Below the pieces are notes generated by a model that was not told the origin of the DNA, made no database searches, and saw only the letters and a list, made by a program, of their open reading frames with translations. From the NCBI GenBank assembly GCA_964567555.1, contig CAZMNA010000002.1, forward strand, positions 71,795-117,318: a stretch of 45,524 nt of DNA. Direction: 5' to 3'. This stretch comes from an uncultured Candidatus Saccharibacteria bacterium. Its GTDB lineage: Bacteria; Patescibacteriota; Saccharimonadia; Saccharimonadales; UBA10212. A program made the position numbers and the translations under genes. Below are positions 2,398 to 45,524 of this stretch, piece by piece. How positions within the stretch are numbered: position 1 is the first letter of the stretch; each line of letters opens with the position of its first letter.

Positions 2398-3888
2398 ATG
2401 ACCAAAAAAGCTTATTTATCGAAGTCGGATTTTTTGAAGTATTTGGTTTGCCCGCAATATCTGTGGCTTTATAAATTCAAGCGTGAAGTTGTGCCACCAG
2501 ACGATGACTTTGTTGCCAAGCAAAGAATGAAGCAAGGCAATGAAGTAGAAGAGTGGGCACGTAAGCTCTACCCTGACGGGAAAATGGTTGATGAAAAGTT
2601 TGACGAAGCCCGCACACAAACTGAAAAGCTGGTTGCAGATGGAGCCAAGACAATTTTTCAAGCGACAGTTTTTACCGACAGCGGACTGCTAGTTAAGGCT
2701 GACGTTTTTAACTTTGACGAAAAAAGCAAAAGCTGGGAGATCCGCGAAGTAAAATCATCCACCAAGATCAAGAAGGACAGATTCCACATTGAGGACGTTG
2801 CCTTCCAAAAAGCCGCCTTTGAAAGTGCTGGATATAAAATCGGTAAAACTTACTTGGTGCATCTAGATAAAACCTACTCCCGTCACGGCGAGTTAAGTCC
2901 CAGGGGATTGTTTGAAGAAGAGGATGTTAGCGAGCAAGTTGATAAAATATCGCCCCAAATTAAAACTATGGCGGACGATGCACTGAAAATGCTCAAAGGG
3001 ACCGAAGAACCTAAGACTTGCAGTTGCCGGCTAAAATCCAAGACCAAACACTGCCCAACATTTAGCTACCTAAACCCGGATATCCCAGAATATTCCGTCT
3101 TTAACATTGCGCGAATCGCCGGGAAAAATTTAGCGCTACTGGTTGATAGTGAGGTCTATAACGTTGACGAAGTATCTGAGGACATCAAGCTTTCGCCAAT
3201 CCAAAGAAACCAAGTTAATGCGGCCAAAACCAAGCAACCGATTATTGACGGTGGAGAGATTGCTAAGGTTCTGGATGAACTTGAGTTTCCACTGTACTTT
3301 TTGGACTATGAAACTCTCAACCTGGCGCTACCTATTTACCAAGGCCACAAGCCATACCAGCATGTGCCGTTCCAGTACTCACTGCATGTTTTACCCGACC
3401 ATAACGCAGAGCTGGAACATTATGAGTTTCTAGACCGAGTAGGCAAACAACCGCCGGAACCGGAACTTTTGGAAAATTTGACCAAGCAAATTGGCAAAAC
3501 CGGCAATGTAATTGTTTGGAACAAATCATTTGAGATAGGCCGGAATAAAGATATGGCCGAGACATACAGCCAGTACGCTAATTTTCTAAACGACCTAAAT
3601 GACAGGGTATTTGACCTGATGGAGGTTTTTAGCAAGCAATTATTTATACACCCGGGTTTTATGGGCAGTAGCTCTATTAAAAAAGTTCTGCCGGTGATGG
3701 TGCCAGAATTTAGCTACAAAGAAATGGACATTCAAAGCGGCGACGTGGCCGCTATACGCTGGTATGACGCAACTAGTGGCAACGTTAGCAAAAGCCAAGC
3801 AGAAAAAACGTTTGACTCACTGATTAAGTACTGCGGGCTTGACACTCTGGCGATGGTCAAAATCTACGAAGCACTCAAAGCTGTATAA
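2398..3888 (+). CDS. DUF2779-domain protein: Cas4/AddB-like PD-(D/E)xK nuclease with Cys staple plus RNase H-like domain
   Basis: LSKSDFLKYLVCP, KADVF...EIREVKSS, CSCRLKSKTKHCP, FLDYET, PFQYSLH, YCGLDTLAM. Start moved from 2218 to ATG 2398, which lies 6 nt after TGcGATAAT. Confidence 0.8.
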   Translation: MTKKAYLSKSDFLKYLVCPQYLWLYKFKREVVPPDDDFVAKQRMKQGNEVEEWARKLYPDGKMVDEKFDEARTQTEKLVADGAKTIFQATVFTDSGLLVKADVFNFDEKSKSWEIREVKSSTKIKKDRFHIEDVAFQKAAFESAGYKIGKTYLVHLDKTYSRHGELSPRGLFEEEDVSEQVDKISPQIKTMADDALKMLKGTEEPKTCSCRLKSKTKHCPTFSYLNPDIPEYSVFNIARIAGKNLALLVDSEVYNVDEVSEDIKLSPIQRNQVNAAKTKQPIIDGGEIAKVLDELEFPLYFLDYETLNLALPIYQGHKPYQHVPFQYSLHVLPDHNAELEHYEFLDRVGKQPPEPELLENLTKQIGKTGNVIVWNKSFEIGRNKDMAETYSQYANFLNDLNDRVFDLMEVFSKQLFIHPGFMGSSSIKKVLPVMVPEFSYKEMDIQSGDVAAIRWYDATSGNVSKSQAEKTFDSLIKYCGLDTLAMVKIYEALKAV

Positions 3889-3918
3889 AATGGGTCTGGG
3901 CATCGGCTTTTTTCGAAT

Positions 3919-5073
3919 TTATGCGGCGACTGGGAACTCTAGCCACTTTTGGTCTTGGACAGCGCCGCGATTTTTAATCCAGATTACCGGCTCGTCTGTT
4001 ACACTGCCAATTTCTTTACCTGTTAGGCCGTGTTTTTTGCCTACTTCAATAACACTATCTGGATCTGACGTTACTACTATCAAACCTGTGCCCATGCATA
4101 AAGTATTGTAGGCTTCTTTGTCTGGCACCATTCCAAGCCTTTGTACTAAATCCATCGGTGTTGGAGGTTGAAAAGGGTTGTCGATAATAGCGCCGCAACC
4201 ACTGGCTTTGAGCAAACTCCCGAGCTTTTCTGGTATACCACCACCGCTGATATTGACCGCACCGTCGAATTCCGCCAGTGCCGGCCGCCTAAGGTCATAG
4301 CCACCTGTCATATCAACGAGCGCCGGCGTATAAACCTCGGACGGCCGAAGCACAAGATCGGCCAACCGCTGCCCCATGAAGATTTCCTCGCCCCAATCGG
4401 GCCCATAATAATATTCGAGAATATCTCTTACCAACGAATGGCCGTTGGTGCGGAAACCCGGCTCGAGGAAACCAACTAGTGGTTCGCCCGGCTTAATTTT
4501 GGAACTGTCGACTAGCCGCGATTCATGGCTGTAACCAGTCATCATTCCGGCTAGCTCAAACCTAAATTGGTCTAACGACCCCATTGTATTGTCTTGGGCT
4601 AGTTCGCCATTAGAGATTGATATGCCCAGGCGAGCCGTGGCGTCTACGGATCCTGCAGCAAGTTCCTGGATTTGCCTAAGCCGGTCATTGTCCTGCCCTA
4701 AAGTATTAACCTTTACATGAACAACAAGATGGACTGGTTCATATCCTCTGCAGGCGGCATCGGCGCCGCTTGCTTCGGCAAGGTCGGTGTAGATCGTACG
4801 TAAATTTCCGGCAATCCTGGCTATTTCAGGCTTACTGCCAGCACCGTCTGCAAACTCGTAAGTGACTGTTCCGGCAGGCAATTCCCCGACATCGGAATAC
4901 CGGACACCGCGAAAATCGTCATGCAGAGTGGTTATTTCGCCCAGCCTGCCCAGCCGATTTTTACTTGTAAGCTGTGAATATTCATATAGAGTCCGCGATG
5001 CTTCAGCCTCTACATGCACATCCACGCCTGATTCACCGTAACTAAAGCTTTTGGGCTTCCATGCTTCCGCCAT
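3919..5073 (-). CDS. purM: Phosphoribosylformylglycinamidine cyclo-ligase (AIR synthase) homolog, divergent
   Basis: SYGESGVD, DGAGSK, GELAQ, IKPGEPLVG...TNGHSLVR, NISGGGIPEKL and EAYNTLCMGTG match PurM motifs in order. Confidence 0.75.
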   Translation of the reverse strand: MAEAWKPKSFSYGESGVDVHVEAEASRTLYEYSQLTSKNRLGRLGEITTLHDDFRGVRYSDVGELPAGTVTYEFADGAGSKPEIARIAGNLRTIYTDLAEASGADAACRGYEPVHLVVHVKVNTLGQDNDRLRQIQELAAGSVDATARLGISISNGELAQDNTMGSLDQFRFELAGMMTGYSHESRLVDSSKIKPGEPLVGFLEPGFRTNGHSLVRDILEYYYGPDWGEEIFMGQRLADLVLRPSEVYTPALVDMTGGYDLRRPALAEFDGAVNISGGGIPEKLGSLLKASGCGAIIDNPFQPPTPMDLVQRLGMVPDKEAYNTLCMGTGLIVVTSDPDSVIEVGKKHGLTGKEIGSVTDEPVIWIKNRGAVQDQKWLEFPVAA

Positions 5074-5179
5074 AACTAAATCTTAGACTGCCAAGACAGC
5101 CTAACCAAGCATATGCGGAATGTGTTTTATAGCCGTTTTGGCATCTTTAAAAGATTCAGGCTCGAGAAAACCTTGTGAG

Positions 5180-5375
5180 TCTGGGCATCGGCTCTTTATT
5201 TCGGACCCAGGGCCAACGGATAAATTTTTACGCTAGCGAGCTAACCGTTTGGCGAGGACTGTCTGACCCGCCAGCTGGCGGGGAGTTCCGCAGCCACGGT
5301 GTGGGCCAGTAAAAATTTAATCCAGTTCGGCGAATGTCCGAGAGTTTTGGCCACACCTTTTCGGCAAAAGGTGTG
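5180..5375. repeat. Structured intergenic element R1 (candidate ncRNA or miniature mobile element), related to R2
   Basis: Long imperfect rod (GGATAAATTTTTAC/GTAAAAATTTAATCC, ACCGT/ACGGT, palindrome CCCGCCAGCTGGCGGG). Both end motifs are shared with 7276-7503. Confidence 0.5.
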
Positions 5376-5400
5376 AAACTTAGTTTGCTATGATTTATGA

Positions 5401-5820
5401 ATGAAACACTACCAAGACAAACAAAAATACATCGTAGTTTTGAAAAAGGGCGAAGATTTAATGGAAGGTCTACGCCAGTTTTGCAAAGAGAGTGGCGTCA
5501 ACGAAGCTTGGCTACAGGGTCTGGGGGCCGCACTGAGCGTAGAACTTGGTTATTACCACCTAGATGACCAAAAATACACGTGGAAAACTTTTGACGGCCC
5601 TATGGAGATTACCAGCCTGAACGGCAACATCGTCCAAAAAGACGGCCAGCCGATGTTTCACATGCACGGCACCTTTAGTGGCCCCGATTACGGCACCATA
5701 GGCGGCCACATAAAGTCCCTGACCATAGCCGGCACCTGTGAAATACTGGTGCACAAAATGGATACCAAACTTACCCGCGCCCACGACGAGCAAGTCGGCC
5801 TAGACCTCCTCTGCCCTTAA
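5401..5820 (+). CDS. PPC/DUF296 domain protein
   Basis: VLKKGEDLMEGL, GLGA, EITSLNGNI, HMHGTF, IGGH, EI. Confidence 0.85.
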   Translation: MKHYQDKQKYIVVLKKGEDLMEGLRQFCKESGVNEAWLQGLGAALSVELGYYHLDDQKYTWKTFDGPMEITSLNGNIVQKDGQPMFHMHGTFSGPDYGTIGGHIKSLTIAGTCEILVHKMDTKLTRAHDEQVGLDLLCP

Positions 5821-5867
5821 AAACGTAAGCAATTTTCTATCCGCAAAATTCTGGTAAAGTAGCTTTC

Positions 5868-6479
5868 ATGGCAGACCCTTATGAGCGGGTAGAAGGTGGT
5901 TTAAGCCCGTCGGACCTAACGCAGGCAGCTTTTTATGTTGGCAGGATTGGCAGCAAGGGGTTAGTAGAGGTAGCAGAAGTAGCTGTTCCCAATCTTGTAG
6001 CTGCGGATGGCTCTGTGAGGGTAATGGCCGCTAGTTTGCTAAGACTGGCTAGGAGGGCGGCGGAAGAAGACAGCGTAATTTTGATCCGTGCAGCAGGTAA
6101 GAATGGTAACCAAGCAGAACCCACTGATGAACTGGAGCCCACAGTACTAGCGGGCGGACGAGTTGTTATTGATCACTTGGGGATGGACGTAGTGGTAGAC
6201 GAAGAGCCTAAAGGCTTGCAACGAAGGCCCTATCAAATACTAGAGCTGCTAGCTCAACAACAAGGCCGTGTACTTACCCAGAAGGCGATAATGAAGCATG
6301 TCTGGGGCAGCACATATGTATCTAGTAGGATAGTTGATGTTAACGTTGGTGTAATCCGAAAAGCATTAGGCGATGAGCTAAGGGACCTTATCGAAACTAG
6401 ACGTGGTATTGGTTATATTATCCCGAGGGAGAAAGACCAGCCAGAAGACTCACCCGTACCGCCCGACCCCGAGACATAA
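5868..6479 (+). CDS. OmpR/PhoB-type winged-helix protein lacking a recognisable receiver domain
   Basis: C-terminal ILELLAQQQGRVLT...VWG...RIVDVNVGVIRKALG...IETRRGIGY. Confidence 0.75.
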   Translation: MADPYERVEGGLSPSDLTQAAFYVGRIGSKGLVEVAEVAVPNLVAADGSVRVMAASLLRLARRAAEEDSVILIRAAGKNGNQAEPTDELEPTVLAGGRVVIDHLGMDVVVDEEPKGLQRRPYQILELLAQQQGRVLTQKAIMKHVWGSTYVSSRIVDVNVGVIRKALGDELRDLIETRRGIGYIIPREKDQPEDSPVPPDPET

Positions 6480-6602
6480 AACTTTGGCATCTCAAAAACC
6501 GGCCATCGGCTCATTGGTCTGTGAACCAAAAGTTGTAAAAATTTCAACAAACGTGCTATAGTTACAAGTAACAAGTCGACACTAAAAGTACATTTTTGAG
6601 GG

Positions 6603-6657
6603 AGTGTTACCAAAAGCGCCGGACGATAGTCCCTAAACGTTCGAGAAAGGTAACACT
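6603..6657 (+). promoter_or_regulatory. 5' leader stem enclosing the RBS region of the downstream gene
   Basis: AGTGTTACC (6603-6611) pairs with GGTAACACT (6649-6657) immediately before ATG 6658. Inner hairpin GGAC-GATA-GTCC. Confidence 0.35.
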
Positions 6658-7239
6658 ATGCCAATAAGCACCGCAAATTTTTTGGGTAGATACGCTATTG
6701 CCCAGAACAACTACTTTGAAGAAGAAGCCATTCGTTTGGCAAAACCTGTCAGCAACAGAAAGATTAAAAGTCTGAGAAAACGGTTAACTCTTGGGCGTGG
6801 TCCGTTTGCGCCCAGGCTGGATACTGCCACGGAAAAACTCATCGGCATGACCGATGGGGCACATGAAAACCTGATTTCTGCCAATACGGTTTTCCCGTTT
6901 GTGCTGTTCCCGGACACCATCAGTGTGGATAGACAAAAACTAACCATTACTCACAGATCGTTCTTCCAGACATCAAGCACAATTAGTGTTCAGATTGACG
7001 ATGTTCAACTGGCAAAAGTAGATGTTGGGCCATTTTTTGGCTCGGTTCACCTGGCTTCTAAGTTTTTTGTAGATAACATTCAATCAATTAACTTCCTAAG
7101 CAGAGGAGACGCTCTGGCAATCCAAAGATTATTGCAGGGTTACATGATAGCCCACCACCGGCAAATTGACTGCTCCTCTATAGACAATGCCCAGCTGGTA
7201 GTTCTACTGAATGAACTCGGCCAAAGCTCCGGAAGCTAA
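6658..7239 (+). CDS. Hypothetical protein, probable bacterial PH-like domain
   Basis: FPFVLFPDTISVDRQKLTITHRSFF...ISVQIDDV...VDVGPFFGSV pattern recalled from CPR PH-like proteins. Confidence 0.55.
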   Translation: MPISTANFLGRYAIAQNNYFEEEAIRLAKPVSNRKIKSLRKRLTLGRGPFAPRLDTATEKLIGMTDGAHENLISANTVFPFVLFPDTISVDRQKLTITHRSFFQTSSTISVQIDDVQLAKVDVGPFFGSVHLASKFFVDNIQSINFLSRGDALAIQRLLQGYMIAHHRQIDCSSIDNAQLVVLLNELGQSSGS

Positions 7240-7275
7240 AAGTTCCCCTGCCCTAGAAATCTCCGGAGCCCTAAA

Positions 7276-7503
7276 TTCGGACCCAGATCCGACAGATGAA
7301 TTTGGTTATTTATTCGGCATCTCTTGAGCCCTGATTTGATGTTGTGAGAATCAGGCGTGTTTGGCCGCGAGAGTTGTTTGACGAGGAAATATGCTGGGAG
7401 CATATTTTTGAGGGGTTCTCGAGCGAGCCTGATTTTTATCAACAGCGTGTCACGGCAAAAAAAACAGCCGAGAGTTTGGCGCCACCTTTTCGGCAAAAGG
7501 TGG
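7276..7503. repeat. Structured intergenic element R2, related to R1
   Basis: Between convergent genes. TTCGGACCCAG..CC.AC.GAT.AATTT is 23/28 identical to R1, and the terminal hairpin CACCTTTTCGGCAAAAGGTG is identical to R1. Confidence 0.5.
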
Positions 7504-7511
7504 TAAAAATT

Positions 7512-8099
7512 TTACTTTTTACCAAAAAGCTCCGGATGTTTTTCTAAAATCCTCAAAAGTTGCTCGTAATATTCATTGATTCTGGCATCCTGGTCAATCT
7601 TGCCAATTTTGATACTTTTCATTTGTTCAAATGTTATCCCATGGTTGTGCCAAGCGCCGCCTTCATACAGATAATTGTTGATTATGGGTACCAGCTTATC
7701 GAGGGCGTAGACAAATTTGGCTTCCTCTGAAGATAGGTTTTCGTATTCATCAATCAGCTCATGGAGGGATGTAAAGGCTGGCCACTCTTTTTTAAGTTTT
7801 TGTACGGCCTGGGCTTCTTTTTGCTTGGCCTTGGCTAGCTTGCTAGATGACGCAAAAGCCAGAGTATCACCAGCATAGACTTCAACAATATCGTGGGCCA
7901 TAGCTATGCAGGCCGCTTTGAACTTATCTAGTTTAAGCTTGTCTTTATCGATTATGTACCAAGCCGTCATTGCAAGTTGATAGCCGTGCTCGGCGTCATT
8001 TTCATGGCTACCTTTTTCTAGAATTATTGCTCGCTCAATGTTACGGATTGCGTGCGTAAATTTAATAAACTCGATTAGATTATCAATACCCTTGCTCAC
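7512..8099 (-). CDS. HD-domain phosphohydrolase (HD_3/YfbR-like)
   Basis: ENDAEHGY, AHDIVEVYAGD, EAKFVYALDKL. Confidence 0.85.
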   Translation of the reverse strand: MSKGIDNLIEFIKFTHAIRNIERAIILEKGSHENDAEHGYQLAMTAWYIIDKDKLKLDKFKAACIAMAHDIVEVYAGDTLAFASSSKLAKAKQKEAQAVQKLKKEWPAFTSLHELIDEYENLSSEEAKFVYALDKLVPIINNYLYEGGAWHNHGITFEQMKSIKIGKIDQDARINEYYEQLLRILEKHPELFGKK

Positions 8100-27272: not shown

Positions 27273-27363
27273 TGGCGGAGGGACAGGGATTCGAACCCTG
27301 GATGCCGTTGCCGACAAACCGCCTTTCCAAGGCGGCGCCATAGACCAACTAGGCGACCCCTCC
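27273..27363 (-). tRNA. tRNA-Ser(GGA)
   Basis: GGAGGGG...CCGCC-TTGGAAA-GGCGG, long variable arm, GGTTCGAATCC, encoded CCA. Confidence 0.95.
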
Positions 27364-39793: not shown

Positions 39794-39869
39794 CTTGAAA
39801 GTGCTAGCCATTGTTGTTATGCTTAAATCAAACAAACAGCGGAACTCAACCCCAAAACACTGCTCTTTA

Positions 39870-39883
39870 GTTTCACGTGAAAC
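39870..39883. promoter_or_regulatory. parS-type ParB-binding palindrome
   Basis: GTTTCACGTGAAAC matches the 14-bp core of the widespread TGTTTCACGTGAAACA consensus. Confidence 0.75.
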
Positions 39884-39946
39884 CACCGAGCAGTGTTTTT
39901 CTTAAATTACCTCTGTTAAAAATACTGTTATACTCTAAGCGTAGCC

Positions 39947-42499
39947 ATGAAACTTACTTCTGCCTATAAACCTTTTGAGCATGAAGCCCACATCTATAAA
40001 CTCTGGGAGAACAGTGGTGCCTTTAAGCCTGCCAAAGTAAAAAACGGCTACTTCAGTATTGTCGCTCCACCGCCCAACGCCAACGGCAACCTACACCTTG
40101 GGCATGGCTTGACGATGGCCATTGAGGATACGCTTGTGCGTTATAACAGATTAAAGGGCAGGGAGAGCTTATTTGTCCCTGGCGCTGATCACGCCGGCTT
40201 TGAAACCTGGGTTGTTTATGAGAAAAAACTTGAGCAAGAAGGGAAGAGCCGCTTTGATTACAGCAGGGAGGAGCTATACCGACAAGTTTGGGATTTTGTG
40301 GCGGCTAACAGAGCTAATTTTGAAAAACAATTCCGACGCTTGGGCGCCAGCACAGATTGGGACTACTTTACGTTTACTTTAGACGACAAAGTCGTAAAGC
40401 AAGCTTATAAAACCTTCAAGAAGATGTGGGATGAGGGATTAATTTACAGGGGTGAGCGCTTGGTTAACTTCTGTACCTACCATGGGACTAGTTTTGCTGA
40501 CGTAGAAGTGGAATATAAAGAGACCGACGGCAGTTTGTGGCATTTAAAGTACCCACTGACAGATGGCTCAGGCGAAATTACTGTAGCTACAACCCGTCCT
40601 GAAACCATGCTTGGAGACACGGCTGTGGCTGTTAACCCAACAGATAAACGCTACACTAAATTCGTCGGCAAAAGTGTTACTCTGCCGCTCGTCGGAAGAG
40701 AAGTGCCGATTGTATCTGATGCAATGGTAGATAAAGAGTTTGGCACTGGTGCTGTTAAGATTACCCCTGCTCATGACCCGAACGATTTTGAACTTGCCGA
40801 ACGCCACAGTTTGCCCCGAATAACGGTTATCGATTTTGAAGGTAAGCTTAATCAACACGTACCCGAACAATATCGTGGTTTAGGTGTTAAAGAAGCTCGC
40901 CAGACTGTCGTTAAGGACCTAAAAGAGCAGGGTGCCCTAGCAAAAGTTGAAGAATATACTCACAGTGTTGGCCACTGCTATAAGTGCGGCACCGTAATTG
41001 AGCCGCTGTTGCGTGAACAGTGGTTTATTGACACCAAATTGCTAGCCAAAAAAGCTATCACCGCTCTTAGGCAGAATAAGATAGAATTTTACCCTGTCTC
41101 TAAAAAGGACCAGCTAATTGGCTACTTTAAGGAGTTAAAAGACTGGAATATCAGCCGTCAGATTGCTTGGGGGATCCCAATTCCAGCCTTTCAAAACCTT
41201 GATAACCCGGATGACTGGCGGTTCGATGAACGTACTGAGCAGGAATTTATAGAGGTTAACGGCCAAAAATACCGCCGCGACCCAGATGTTTTTGACACAT
41301 GGTTTTCTTCTAGCTCGTGGCCGTATGTTACTTTGGATTACCCGAGTGAAGACTTTAAAAAATTCTATCCGTTATCTGTTATGGAGACTGGTAATGAAAT
41401 TCTTTACCCTTGGGTCTCGCGCATGATTATGCTCGGGCTATATACAACAGGGGACGTTCCTTTTAAGAAAGTTTACATCCATGGGTATGTTATGGCCGAG
41501 AGCGGCGCCAAAATGAGTAAATCTCTAGGTAATGTCATTGATTTAACAGAGGTCATTGACAAATACGGATCCGATGCCCTGCGTATGGGTCTAATAGCTG
41601 GGCGTGTACCGGGTGTCAACAGGGGTTATGACAGCCGCAGGGTAGAAGAAGCCCGCAATTTTTGTAATAAACTCTGGAATGTCGCAAGATTTATTCAGTC
41701 ACTAGGTGATTCCGGCGGGGAGGGGAAGTCAAACAGCATGGTGGATACTTGGATACTTAACAAGTTAAGTAAAACTATCTCCTCAGTTGAAAATGACCTA
41801 GAACAGTTCCGCTTTAGTGAAGCCTACGAGAGTCTTTACCACTTTGTGTGGGATGATTTGGCGGATTGGTATGTTGAGGTTCTAAAGGTTGAGCCCAGCC
41901 CATCCGTAGCTACCCAAGTTTTAGAAGCTACTTTAAAGATTACGCATCCTTTTGCACCGTTTGTAACCGAGACCATCTGGCAAACACTTGGCTGGCAAAA
42001 GTCACTTTTAGCCACCGCCGATTGGCCCAAAGCTCCAGCGGCAGACCCAAAACAAGCGGCTAATTTTGAGGGGCTGATTAAACTTGTTGGCGAAATCCGG
42101 CGAATTAATAGTGTTCTCAAGCTCAAACAACCAATTTTGAGTATGCCAAAGCTTCCGGTCTGGCTAGAAGGGCAGGTGGAAACTCTGCAGCAGCTGGCAC
42201 AACTTGGCCAGGTCAACCAGCAGCCAACACCGCGCGGCCTTCGCTTGGCCTCTATTTCAAGCGAGGCTCGCTTGGAAGTACAAGCCGCCCAAGCTAAAAA
42301 ATACCAAGTTAAGCTAGATCAAGAAGTTCAACAGACAAAATCAGCCGTGGAGCTTTTGGAAAAACGGTTAGCAAATAAACATTACCTGGCCAAAGCACCG
42401 GCAGAACTGGTGAGAGATTCTAAAGCTCAACTAGCTGAGAATAAAGACAATTTAAAAAGGCTGGAAGCAGAGGCTTCTTCTTGGGCCGACATTACTTAA
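39947..42499 (+). CDS. valS: Valine--tRNA ligase
   Basis: PPPNANGNLHLGH, ATTRPET, DWNISRQIAWG, DVFDTWFSS, KMSKSLGN, C-terminal coiled coil. Confidence 0.97.
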   Translation: MKLTSAYKPFEHEAHIYKLWENSGAFKPAKVKNGYFSIVAPPPNANGNLHLGHGLTMAIEDTLVRYNRLKGRESLFVPGADHAGFETWVVYEKKLEQEGKSRFDYSREELYRQVWDFVAANRANFEKQFRRLGASTDWDYFTFTLDDKVVKQAYKTFKKMWDEGLIYRGERLVNFCTYHGTSFADVEVEYKETDGSLWHLKYPLTDGSGEITVATTRPETMLGDTAVAVNPTDKRYTKFVGKSVTLPLVGREVPIVSDAMVDKEFGTGAVKITPAHDPNDFELAERHSLPRITVIDFEGKLNQHVPEQYRGLGVKEARQTVVKDLKEQGALAKVEEYTHSVGHCYKCGTVIEPLLREQWFIDTKLLAKKAITALRQNKIEFYPVSKKDQLIGYFKELKDWNISRQIAWGIPIPAFQNLDNPDDWRFDERTEQEFIEVNGQKYRRDPDVFDTWFSSSSWPYVTLDYPSEDFKKFYPLSVMETGNEILYPWVSRMIMLGLYTTGDVPFKKVYIHGYVMAESGAKMSKSLGNVIDLTEVIDKYGSDALRMGLIAGRVPGVNRGYDSRRVEEARNFCNKLWNVARFIQSLGDSGGEGKSNSMVDTWILNKLSKTISSVENDLEQFRFSEAYESLYHFVWDDLADWYVEVLKVEPSPSVATQVLEATLKITHPFAPFVTETIWQTLGWQKSLLATADWPKAPAADPKQAANFEGLIKLVGEIRRINSVLKLKQPILSMPKLPVWLEGQVETLQQLAQLGQVNQQPTPRGLRLASISSEARLEVQAAQAKKYQVKLDQEVQQTKSAVELLEKRLANKHYLAKAPAELVRDSKAQLAENKDNLKRLEAEASSWADIT

Positions 42500-43992: not shown

Positions 43993-44082
43993 GGAGAGGT
44001 GCAGGAGTGGTTGAACTGGCCGCTCTCGAAAAGCGGTAAGGCCGCAAGGCTTTCGTGGGTTCGAATCCCACCCTCTCCGCCA
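43993..44082 (+). tRNA. tRNA-Ser(CGA)
   Basis: GGAGAGG...CCGCT-CTCGAAA-AGCGG, long variable arm, GGTTCGAATCC, CCA end; TATAAT upstream. Confidence 0.95.
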
Positions 44083-45469: not shown

Positions 45470-45524
45470 GCGCGTGTAGCTCAGCTGGATAGAGCGTCGG
45501 CTTGCGGAGCCGAAGGTCGTAGGT
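45470..45524 (+). tRNA. tRNA-Arg(GCG), truncated by the window end
   Basis: GCGCGTG-TA-GCTCAGCTGGATAGAGC-G-TCGGC-TTGCGGA-GCCGA; anticodon at 45504-45506. Confidence 0.85.

Follow-up and report, generated by a model that had tools for sequence, protein, structure and literature searches.

Among the closest described systems, 6S RNA (ssrS, RF00013) and the mycobacterial Ms1 RNA are free-standing, about 200 nucleotides (nt) long and largely double-stranded with paired ends, and paralogues of them occur in some genomes. Bacterial Y RNAs (YrlA-type, associated with Rsr/Ro60) are characterized by an end-paired stem, clustered diverged copies and presumed protein binding, and the orphan "ornate" non-coding RNAs (ncRNAs) such as the raiA motif RNA, OLE, ROOL and HEARO are lineage-restricted, have a complex fold supported by covariation and have no assigned function. 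All these properties return in two intergenic elements, R1 and R2, which we analyzed in a stretch of 45,524 nt from an uncultured Candidatus Saccharibacteria bacterium (assembly GCA_964567555.1, contig CAZMNA010000002.1, positions 71,795 to 117,318 of the forward strand; the whole stretch is called the window in the following). R1 and R2 are likely two paralogous genes of a structured ncRNA family that is absent from Rfam 15 and apparently belongs to the Saccharimonadales. The family folds into a rod, which differs from 6S and Ms1 RNA in that it has no open-promoter-like central bubble, a short terminal arm, and an apical three-way junction and loop of its own. It differs from the bacterial Y RNAs in that no Rfam Y-RNA family matched and no recurrent TROVE/Rsr neighbour gene was found among the families matching at least two neighbours, which were those that could be judged. 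From the ornate RNAs it is set apart by the absence of any sequence or structure match in Rfam 15, by its size, since the rod is smaller than OLE, ROOL and GOLLD, and by the location of its genes, which are not found beside raiA or IscB/TnpB genes.

The similarity of R1 and R2 was noticed in a first-pass annotation made from the window alone, and all sequence features listed there were found again when positions 4900-7800 were read anew. The left motif, TTCGGACCCAGGGCCAACGGATAAATTT at 5200-5227 and TTCGGACCCAGATCCGACAGATGAATTT at 7276-7303, is identical in 23 of 28 positions and represents the rank-2 direct-repeat family in the whole window. A CCGAGAG string starts 138 nt past the left motif in R1 (5338) and 192 nt past it in R2 (7468), followed by TTT(T)GGC and an identical 20-nt hairpin, CACCTTTTCGGCAAAAGGTG, at 5354-5373 and 7483-7502. 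This right module (33-35 nt) shows 88% identity over 33 nt in the direct-repeat listing, and the hairpin has two matches in the window at up to 3 mismatches compared to 0.01 expected, a number that was reached in 0 of 100 shuffles. One correction is necessary: the 11-nt string TTCGGACCCAG alone is unremarkable at 2 mismatches (8 matches vs 9.5 expected), hence the evidence rests on the full 28-nt motif and the 3' module. The pairs flanking the hairpin covary and extend its stem as claimed (C5352-G5375 and A5353-U5374 in R1, G7481.U7504 and C7482-G7503 in R2), and the proposed pairing of TTCGG with CCGAG is present in the minimum-free-energy folds of both elements, which are far better than those of shuffled controls (z = -4.1 for R1 and -3.0 for R2).

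Database searches gave no indication of a described family. Rfam 15 matched no family to R1 or R2, also at E<=10: the whole window contained only three tRNAs at gathering score, the region 5000-7700 returned three chance-level matches at E<=10 (the best with 32.6 bits vs a gathering score of 51), none of 16 homologous loci had a match at the gathering threshold, and positions 1900-2260 of contig L047 had no match at E<=10. In full-text searches of the literature on ncRNAs of Saccharibacteria, Patescibacteria, TM7 and the candidate phyla radiation (CPR), only the unrelated lysM-TM7 leader motif and TIGR-Tas arrays turned up. Homologues were found on three routes. Contigs encoding homologues of the PCC-domain protein next to R1 did not keep the gene order; one of them, L010 (PCC protein 82% identical), carries a solo 3' module and an R1-type copy, and this 3' module lies in opposite orientation upstream of the PCC gene and shows a compensatory T-A to A-T change in its hairpin. 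A pattern scan of the GTDB species genomes for the 3' module gave one match, L015, a Candidatus Saccharimonadales metagenome-assembled genome, which aligns with R2 across the whole middle and has a covarying apical hairpin. Finally, the core pattern GTTTGRCGANNA-N(12-40)-GRGGRGTTCYNNAGC, derived from R1, R2 and L015, was scanned against a metagenome collection and found 61 loci, of which 50 are clear relatives from many different projects; the remaining 11 match by chance, either within coding DNA or in the 5' half of tRNA-Tyr genes. The relatives and the two window copies make up 47 distinct sequences. Viral contigs matched neither core pattern. The family appears to belong to the Saccharimonadales (Saccharibacteria/TM7, CPR). 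The tRNA-Tyr matches (L038 around 532-592; L076 2951-3010, GGAGGGGTTCCCGAGCGGTC...) resemble the GRGGRGTTCYNNAGC half of the pattern and are not homologues.

An alignment of 41 sequences (MAFFT and RNAalifold) resulted in a consensus fold in the form of a long rod of about 190-250 nt, the 5' and 3' ends of which are paired in helix P1. Above P1 stands the long helix P1b/P2 (e.g. AGAUGUUGU..AAAA..AGGC with GCCUGUUUU.AACAACAGAU), and a mini-hairpin of two base pairs (bp) with a nearly invariant UUG loop forms a three-way junction. Helix P3, GCGAGAG/CUCGAGC, usually contains a tandem G.A/A.G at its centre, which has been replaced by Watson-Crick pairs in some members (GGCUUUGG/CCAAAGCC, GGCUGAAG/CUUCAGCC). 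The conserved internal loop has GUUUGACGA on the 5' and GAGGAGUU on the 3' side, and P4 is a variable hairpin of 9-11 bp that is free in sequence and covaries at almost every pair. RNAalifold predicted 45 pairs, 30 of them with compensatory double changes. When the 3' partners of the named structure were slid by 1-3 columns, the proportion of cells with standard pairs dropped from 89.8% to 38-48%, the number of pairs with double-sided changes from 38 of 53 to 15-23, and the covariation score from 0.444 to 0.055-0.133, and 0 of 500 shuffles reached any of the observed measures. Compensatory changes that back a common fold among diverged homologues, a general mark of a structured ncRNA gene, are present and both controls are clearly exceeded. 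Among the variable pairs, G.U occurs in 79 and A.C in 24 cells (about 3 to 1), therefore the strand given in the window is the folded strand.

The closing helix P1 was misaligned in the 41-sequence alignment (58% paired). Analyzed copy by copy, the end of the 5' flank pairs with the beginning of the 3' flank directly adjacent to the core in 45 of 45 copies, with sequences as diverse as UUCGGC/GCCGAG, UCCAGAC/GUCUGGG, UUUUGAGC/GCUCAAAA and CAAAC/GUUUG. The copies fall into two classes. In class A (L016, L034, L047, L051 and others), P1 is extended into a closing stem of 20-25 bp with duplex z values down to -7, and no 3' hairpin is present. Class B, which includes both window copies, has a short P1, a U-rich linker (UUUUGC) and the 3' hairpin H1; hence the "conserved ends" of R1 and R2 are P1 together with the class-B 3' module. 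The H1 stems covary in 33 of 33 class B copies, 32 from other contigs plus R2 (CCACCUUUU/AAAAGGUGG, CCUACUUUUUGG/CCAAAAAGUAGG, GCAACCUUUG/CAAAGGUUGC), and a second small hairpin, H2, often follows 3' of H1. We regard it as very likely that these sequences form a genuine conserved structured RNA gene family to which both R1 and R2 belong. This Saccharibacterial rod is an RNA family absent from Rfam 15 and without detectable relative. Of the three interpretations offered in the first-pass annotation, the undescribed ncRNA family is the one that held: homologues exist on about 50 contigs, covariation is strong and Rfam returned no match. The support is stronger and the family larger than could be seen from the window.

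In the window, the two copies comprise the following parts:

7265-7504, + strand: R2, a canonical member, predicted to extend from the outer pairing GGAGCC/GGC through H1.
7276-7303, + strand: R2 left motif, additional 5' sequence that precedes the family-canonical P1 strand, species-specific and shared only with R1.
7313-7318, + strand: R2 P1 5' strand UUCGGC, in the family register according to alignment and per-copy duplex analysis.
7322-7464, + strand: R2 core rod with P1b/P2, the mini-hairpin with UUG loop GUGUUUGGCC, P3 GCGAGAG/CUCGAGC, the internal loop GUUUGACGA/GAGGGGUU, and P4 AAAUAUGCU-GGG-AGCAUAUUU.
7467-7472, + strand: R2 P1 3' strand GCCGAG, followed by AG and the UUUGGC linker.
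7481-7504, + strand: R2 H1, 10 bp, loop UCGG/CGGC.
7515-7529, + strand: R2 H2 (CUUUUU-ACC-AAAAAG), overlapping the 3' end of the convergent HD-domain gene.
5157-5375, + strand: R1, a divergent "R1-type" paralogue, predicted to extend from a possible 5' hairpin (CAGGCUC 5157-5163/GAGUCUG 5177-5183) through H1.
5200-5227, + strand: R1 left motif, an integral part of the RNA that contains the P1 5' strand UUCGGAC (5200-5206) and the 5' strands of the next helices.
5251-5296, + strand: R1 core GGCGAGGACU-GUCUGACCC-GCCAGCUGGC-GGGGAGUUCCGCAGCCA with P3, an altered internal loop and a shortened P4.
5336-5342, + strand: R1 P1 3' strand GUCCGAG in the minimum-free-energy fold, covarying with L010.
5352-5375, + strand: R1 H1, 10 bp, 26 nt upstream of the PCC gene ATG at 5401.

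R2 was recognized by a covariance model built from 42 core sequences, from which the window copy R1 had been left out, with 131.3 bits (E 9e-33) on 7322-7464. It aligns along its length with L015, L022, L063 and L065, its closest relatives, the alignment beginning only at about 7311. The left motif of R2 is situated about 35 nt upstream of the canonical P1 strand and supplies a second UUCGG (7276-7280), which is an alternative partner of the P1 3' strand. H2 is found at the same position in many relatives. In addition, within 7467-7494 the P1 3' strand GCCGAGAG of R2 is complementary to CUUUUCGGC, the 5' arm and loop of H1, and this alternative fold excludes P1 and H1.

The same model detected R1 at 5251-5296 with 23.7 bits (E 3.5e-4). 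A first register, which placed GTTTGGCGAGGA of R1 against GTTTGACGAGGA of R2, was wrong; the covariance model gave GCGAGGACU-GUCUGACCC. Accordingly read, R1 shows GGCGAGGACU-GUCUGACCC-GCCAGCUGGC-GGGGAGUUCCGCAGCC with a P3 of the GCGAGGA/UCCGCAGC type, a very short P4 and a loop that has been changed to GUCUGACCC/GGGGAGU. The middles of R1 and R2, which had been described as different structured middles, look unrelated, but both hold the family core of P3, conserved internal loop and P4. An R1-type copy exists in a second species (L010 6248-6362, with the upstream TTCAGGCTCGAGAAAAC in common with R1). The cores of about 47 nt are identical in all but 2 bases and the flanks have diverged, with compensatory changes in P1 (CGGAC/GUCCG vs CAGGC/GCCUG) and an A/U-rich helix that differs in sequence but keeps its complementarity. 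The H1 of this copy has 13 bp of a sequence unrelated to that of R1, and the copy is not located beside the PCC gene. Because the same variant core has been kept in L010 together with compensatory changes in P1 and the A/U-rich helix, the R1-type is under selection and R1 is not a decaying copy. The exchanges of CGA to CCC on the 5' side and of GAGG to GGGG on the 3' side would be expected if the "loop" is a continuous non-canonical helix in which G.A/A.G was converted to C-G, judging from these two sequences. The proposed order of pairs in this helix is G-C, U.U, U.U, U.G, G.A, A.G, C-G, G.A, A.G. The near-identical ends of R1 and R2 probably reflect gene conversion or a shared constraint, with a homogenisation of the ends of two genes 2 kb apart, and the likeness of left motif and 3' module looks unlike a coding constraint. 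Upstream of the P1 strand of R1 lie two relic-like segments at 5157-5175 and 5184-5195, UUCAGGCUCGAGAAAAC and GGGCAUCGGCUC; the former is the same as the P1 5' region of the R1-type copy in L010, the latter resembles the canonical 5' region of the family and also occurs upstream of L063, which suggests past recombination among paralogues.

Additional copies missed by the pattern were found by the model, namely one more copy each in L046 and L074, a total of three within 13 kb in L029 (138, 99 and 72 bits), a weak second copy in L015, and the copy in L010. The presence of several copies, and of paralogue types that are diverged and yet conserved, speaks against a single-copy housekeeping RNA like signal recognition particle RNA or RNase P RNA. 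In L029 (3578-3723, - strand, and 3776-3923, + strand) and L015 (4480-4623, - strand, and 4673-4826, + strand), a canonical copy and a "GUUCGA(A)CGC" variant are arranged back to back and divergently, about 50 nt apart. This arrangement suggests a shared bidirectional promoter region and an old, conserved pair of paralogues; since the same pair exists in both genomes, it predates their split.

R1 is located between the divergent genes 3919-5073 (- strand, AIR-synthase-related) and 5401-5820 (+ strand, PCC-domain), and R2 between the convergent genes 6658-7239 (+ strand, encoding 193 amino acids (aa), family not assigned) and 7512-8099 (- strand, HD-domain); the divergent and convergent arrangements are as annotated before. 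The statement that neither element is a simple 5' leader applies to the family as a whole, because the downstream open reading frame (ORF) is convergent in roughly four fifths of the contigs with a callable downstream ORF; the upstream ORF has either direction. The neighbours are unrelated housekeeping genes, among them those for a ClpC-like protein, IleRS, RNase J, RmuC, ribonucleotide reductase, DNA polymerase I and RarA. When 69 flanking proteins were surveyed with Pfam, no family occurred in more than 4 of them, transposases, integrases and reverse transcriptases did not recur, and the only recurrences came from small synteny blocks (RNase J in 3, RarA/MgsA in 3, ComM-like in 2). The usually convergent downstream ORF and the unrelated neighbours therefore indicate a free-standing RNA gene and not a leader. 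Several members, such as L027 and L061 with TGTATAAT, have -10-like hexamers a few bases upstream of the predicted 5' ends, and from the sequences we infer that the rod is transcribed as its own gene, its ends and abundance being predicted likewise. An internal promoter starting from TTGACG in the conserved loop was rejected, since no -10 partner is conserved with it; the place where one would be expected belongs to the covarying 3' strand of P4.

An 18-nt near-palindrome, TACTTAACAAGTTAAGTA, is present about 30 nt upstream of the predicted 5' ends in L039 (3317-3334), L051 (1264-1281) and L071 (4117-4134), with variants in L034, L049 and L062; further sites are located in L016 (147-164), L035 (3 sites), L064 (2608-2625) and L068 (509-526). 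It may be a candidate promoter or operator box. In the window, it occurs exactly once, at 41754-41771 inside an ORF of 850 aa (39947-42499), where it reads ..WILNKLSK.... The extended -10 element TGnTATGAT of the PCC-domain gene ends a few bases before the ATG in both species (window 5386-5403; L010 4303-4328), which is consistent with a leaderless mRNA, in which case H1 of R1 would overlap the -35 region of the PCC promoter. Elsewhere in the window, a palindrome with arms of 24 nt (AAAACACTGCTC...GAGCAGTGTTTT) lies at 39854-39899 between two genes on the same strand. With its A and T tracts it resembles a classical bidirectional intrinsic terminator and differs in this from the family's H1 hairpins. 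The tRNA genes are found at 43993-44079 (+ strand), 27276-27363 (- strand) and 45470-45524 (+ strand); long variable arms occur in two of them, and the window end truncates the third.

The question remains which other explanations might account for the two elements. By analogy, the rod could be a 6S/Ms1-like RNA that binds RNA polymerase by mimicking promoter DNA, R1 and R2 then being comparable to 6S-1 and 6S-2. The length of about 150-200 nt, the paired 5' and 3' ends, the rod shape, the free-standing gene and the presence of more than one paralogue per genome agree with it. However, neither the consensus nor the single-sequence folds show a large central bubble between a long closing and a long terminal stem, and L016 and L027 have an almost completely paired rod. 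The sole sizeable loop is apical and capped by the 9-11-bp P4, which, compared with the established 6S architecture, would be too short to mimic an upstream duplex. Moreover, RF00013 is as silent as all other Rfam families even at E<=10, and up to three copies exist within 13 kb, so that we consider a 6S-like function improbable. An action in cis as a ligand-sensing RNA, with the core as aptamer closed by P1 and H1 as terminator, appears slightly less probable still. The layout of conserved core, P1 and hairpin would fit, R1 is positioned closely upstream of the PCC gene, and in R2 and its closest relatives the P1 3' strand can pair with H1 instead. This alternative pairing is strong in R2, L022 and L063 (z about -3; -2.8 to -3.7 in the subclade), but it is not a feature of the family, in which the median z is -1.1 and 6 of 25 copies are below -1.64; the signal for a terminator/antiterminator switch is weak and limited to one subclade. 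In most contigs the downstream gene is convergent, hence nothing is left for a riboswitch to regulate, and a 5' untranslated region (UTR) of recurrent regulated genes is not what the neighbour survey revealed. Furthermore, class A members lack H1 altogether, no U-tract lies next to H1, and the R1-type copy of L010 does not adjoin the PCC gene. A resemblance to the ykkC/guanidine-I riboswitch (motif GGGUUCCG ... GGUCCGAGAG), with the strings GGAGUUCCG and GUCCGAGAG in the same order in R1, was dismissed as chance, because the sequence of the P1 3' strand is free to vary among the members (GCCCGGGAG, GUCUGGGA, GCUCAAAA); RF00442 is silent at E<=10, and R1 and R2 are not situated in 5' UTRs.

The two other interpretations of the first-pass annotation, a non-autonomous mobile element and a micro-peptide locus, should be dropped. 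With a similarly low probability as the riboswitch, R1 and R2 would be repetitive palindromic or mobile elements of the MITE, ERIC or REP kind, whose ends are conserved for a transposase or for housekeeping at the DNA or RNA level and whose fold is incidental. Like those repeats they are long imperfect palindromes in intergenic DNA, often between convergent genes and in several copies per contig, and the ends of R1 and R2 are identical while their middles differ. Besides this copy pattern, the only hint in the same direction is an internally shortened version with the same 3' module in L010 (about 4240-4300, - strand). It consists of the stem CUCU..CUUUGU-GUCG-ACAAAG..GAGAG followed by CUUUGGC and H1 CCACCUUUACGGCUAAAGGUGG, i.e. 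a class-B 3' module in which a small hairpin takes the place of the whole RNA body; to either side of it, a 147-aa gene and the PCC gene start in divergent directions. Across species, however, it is the apical, unpaired core that is conserved and the ends that vary (classes A and B); only within the window do the ends exceed the interior in conservation. The copies are few, old and diverged, with at most three per contig, as counted on contigs, and the spread of scores seen in L029, and the excess of G.U over A.C indicates that selection acts on one transcribed strand. Apart from the P1 of 5-7 bp, terminal inverted repeats were not seen, nor was an evident target-site duplication (R1 is flanked by ...CTTTAT and AAACTT..., R2 by ...CCTAAA and TAAAAA...); the 69 neighbouring proteins contained no recurrent transposase, integrase or reverse-transcriptase family, and viral contigs gave no match. 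Far more improbable is a micro-peptide gene, in which the left motif encodes SDP(G/D)PTD(K/E)F within two ORFs of 38 codons. Both ORFs exist (5120-5236, reading SDPGPTDKF, and 7211-7327, reading SDPDPTDEF), and 2 of the 5 differences in the motif are synonymous third-position changes. But the peptide SDPxPTDxF, looked for in six-frame translation, and the 28-nt DNA motif are restricted to this species, being present in L001-L007 and the window and absent from the other approximately 45 members. The two ORFs are unrelated outside these 9 residues, the second one starts inside gene 6658-7239, and in R1 the bases of the motif lie in paired strands of the RNA.

Several observations weigh against the reading of R1 and R2 as members of a saccharibacterial RNA family. 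The model score of R1 is modest and covers only 46 nt, and a taxonomic label exists for one homologue only (L015). The near-invariance of GUUUGACGA/GAGGAGUUC among the pattern-derived matches is partly circular, because the scan pattern demanded these bases, and copies found later by the model vary at this loop (GUUUGAGGA, GUUCGACGC, GUCUGACCC); the conservation of the UUG loop and of the P2 sequence as well as all covariation are independent of the pattern. With regard to expression, no RNA-seq run was found for the window or L062, and the coverage in the four runs that hold L016 is low, gene-wide and DNA-like. There is also a small probability that R1 and R2 are multi-copy palindromic elements or have roles at the DNA level. 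Finally, a trans-acting, protein-binding role is a guess from the architecture, which we hold tentatively and with somewhat less than even confidence. In such a mechanism, the rod RNA would be transcribed independently and act in trans, with its long rod as a stable scaffold, and the apical module of junction, UUG loop and non-Watson-Crick loop, which is conserved, would be recognized by a conserved partner, most probably a protein. The claim of novelty covers the RNA family and not the mechanism.

Saccharibacteria, most of which are uncultured, have genomes of about 1 Mb with very few known regulators and live on other bacteria as epibionts. An RNA of about 200 nt that is supported by covariation and kept in several diverged copies is unlikely to be dispensable for them, and due to its absence from Rfam the rod RNA cannot be seen by current genome annotation. 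Naming the family provides an annotation model, a defined target for deletion or pull-down in those few strains that are genetically tractable, and, for structural work, a compact conserved motif made up of three-way junction, UUG loop and G.A-rich internal loop. We lean slightly towards the view that the rod represents a new RNA class specific to Saccharibacteria, possibly to the wider CPR, with several functionally diverged paralogues per genome (canonical, R1-type and the "GUUCGACGC" type back to back with the canonical one), the apical module of which may form a new unit for the recognition of RNA by a protein or a ligand and be important to the bacteria in their reduced, epibiotic way of life.

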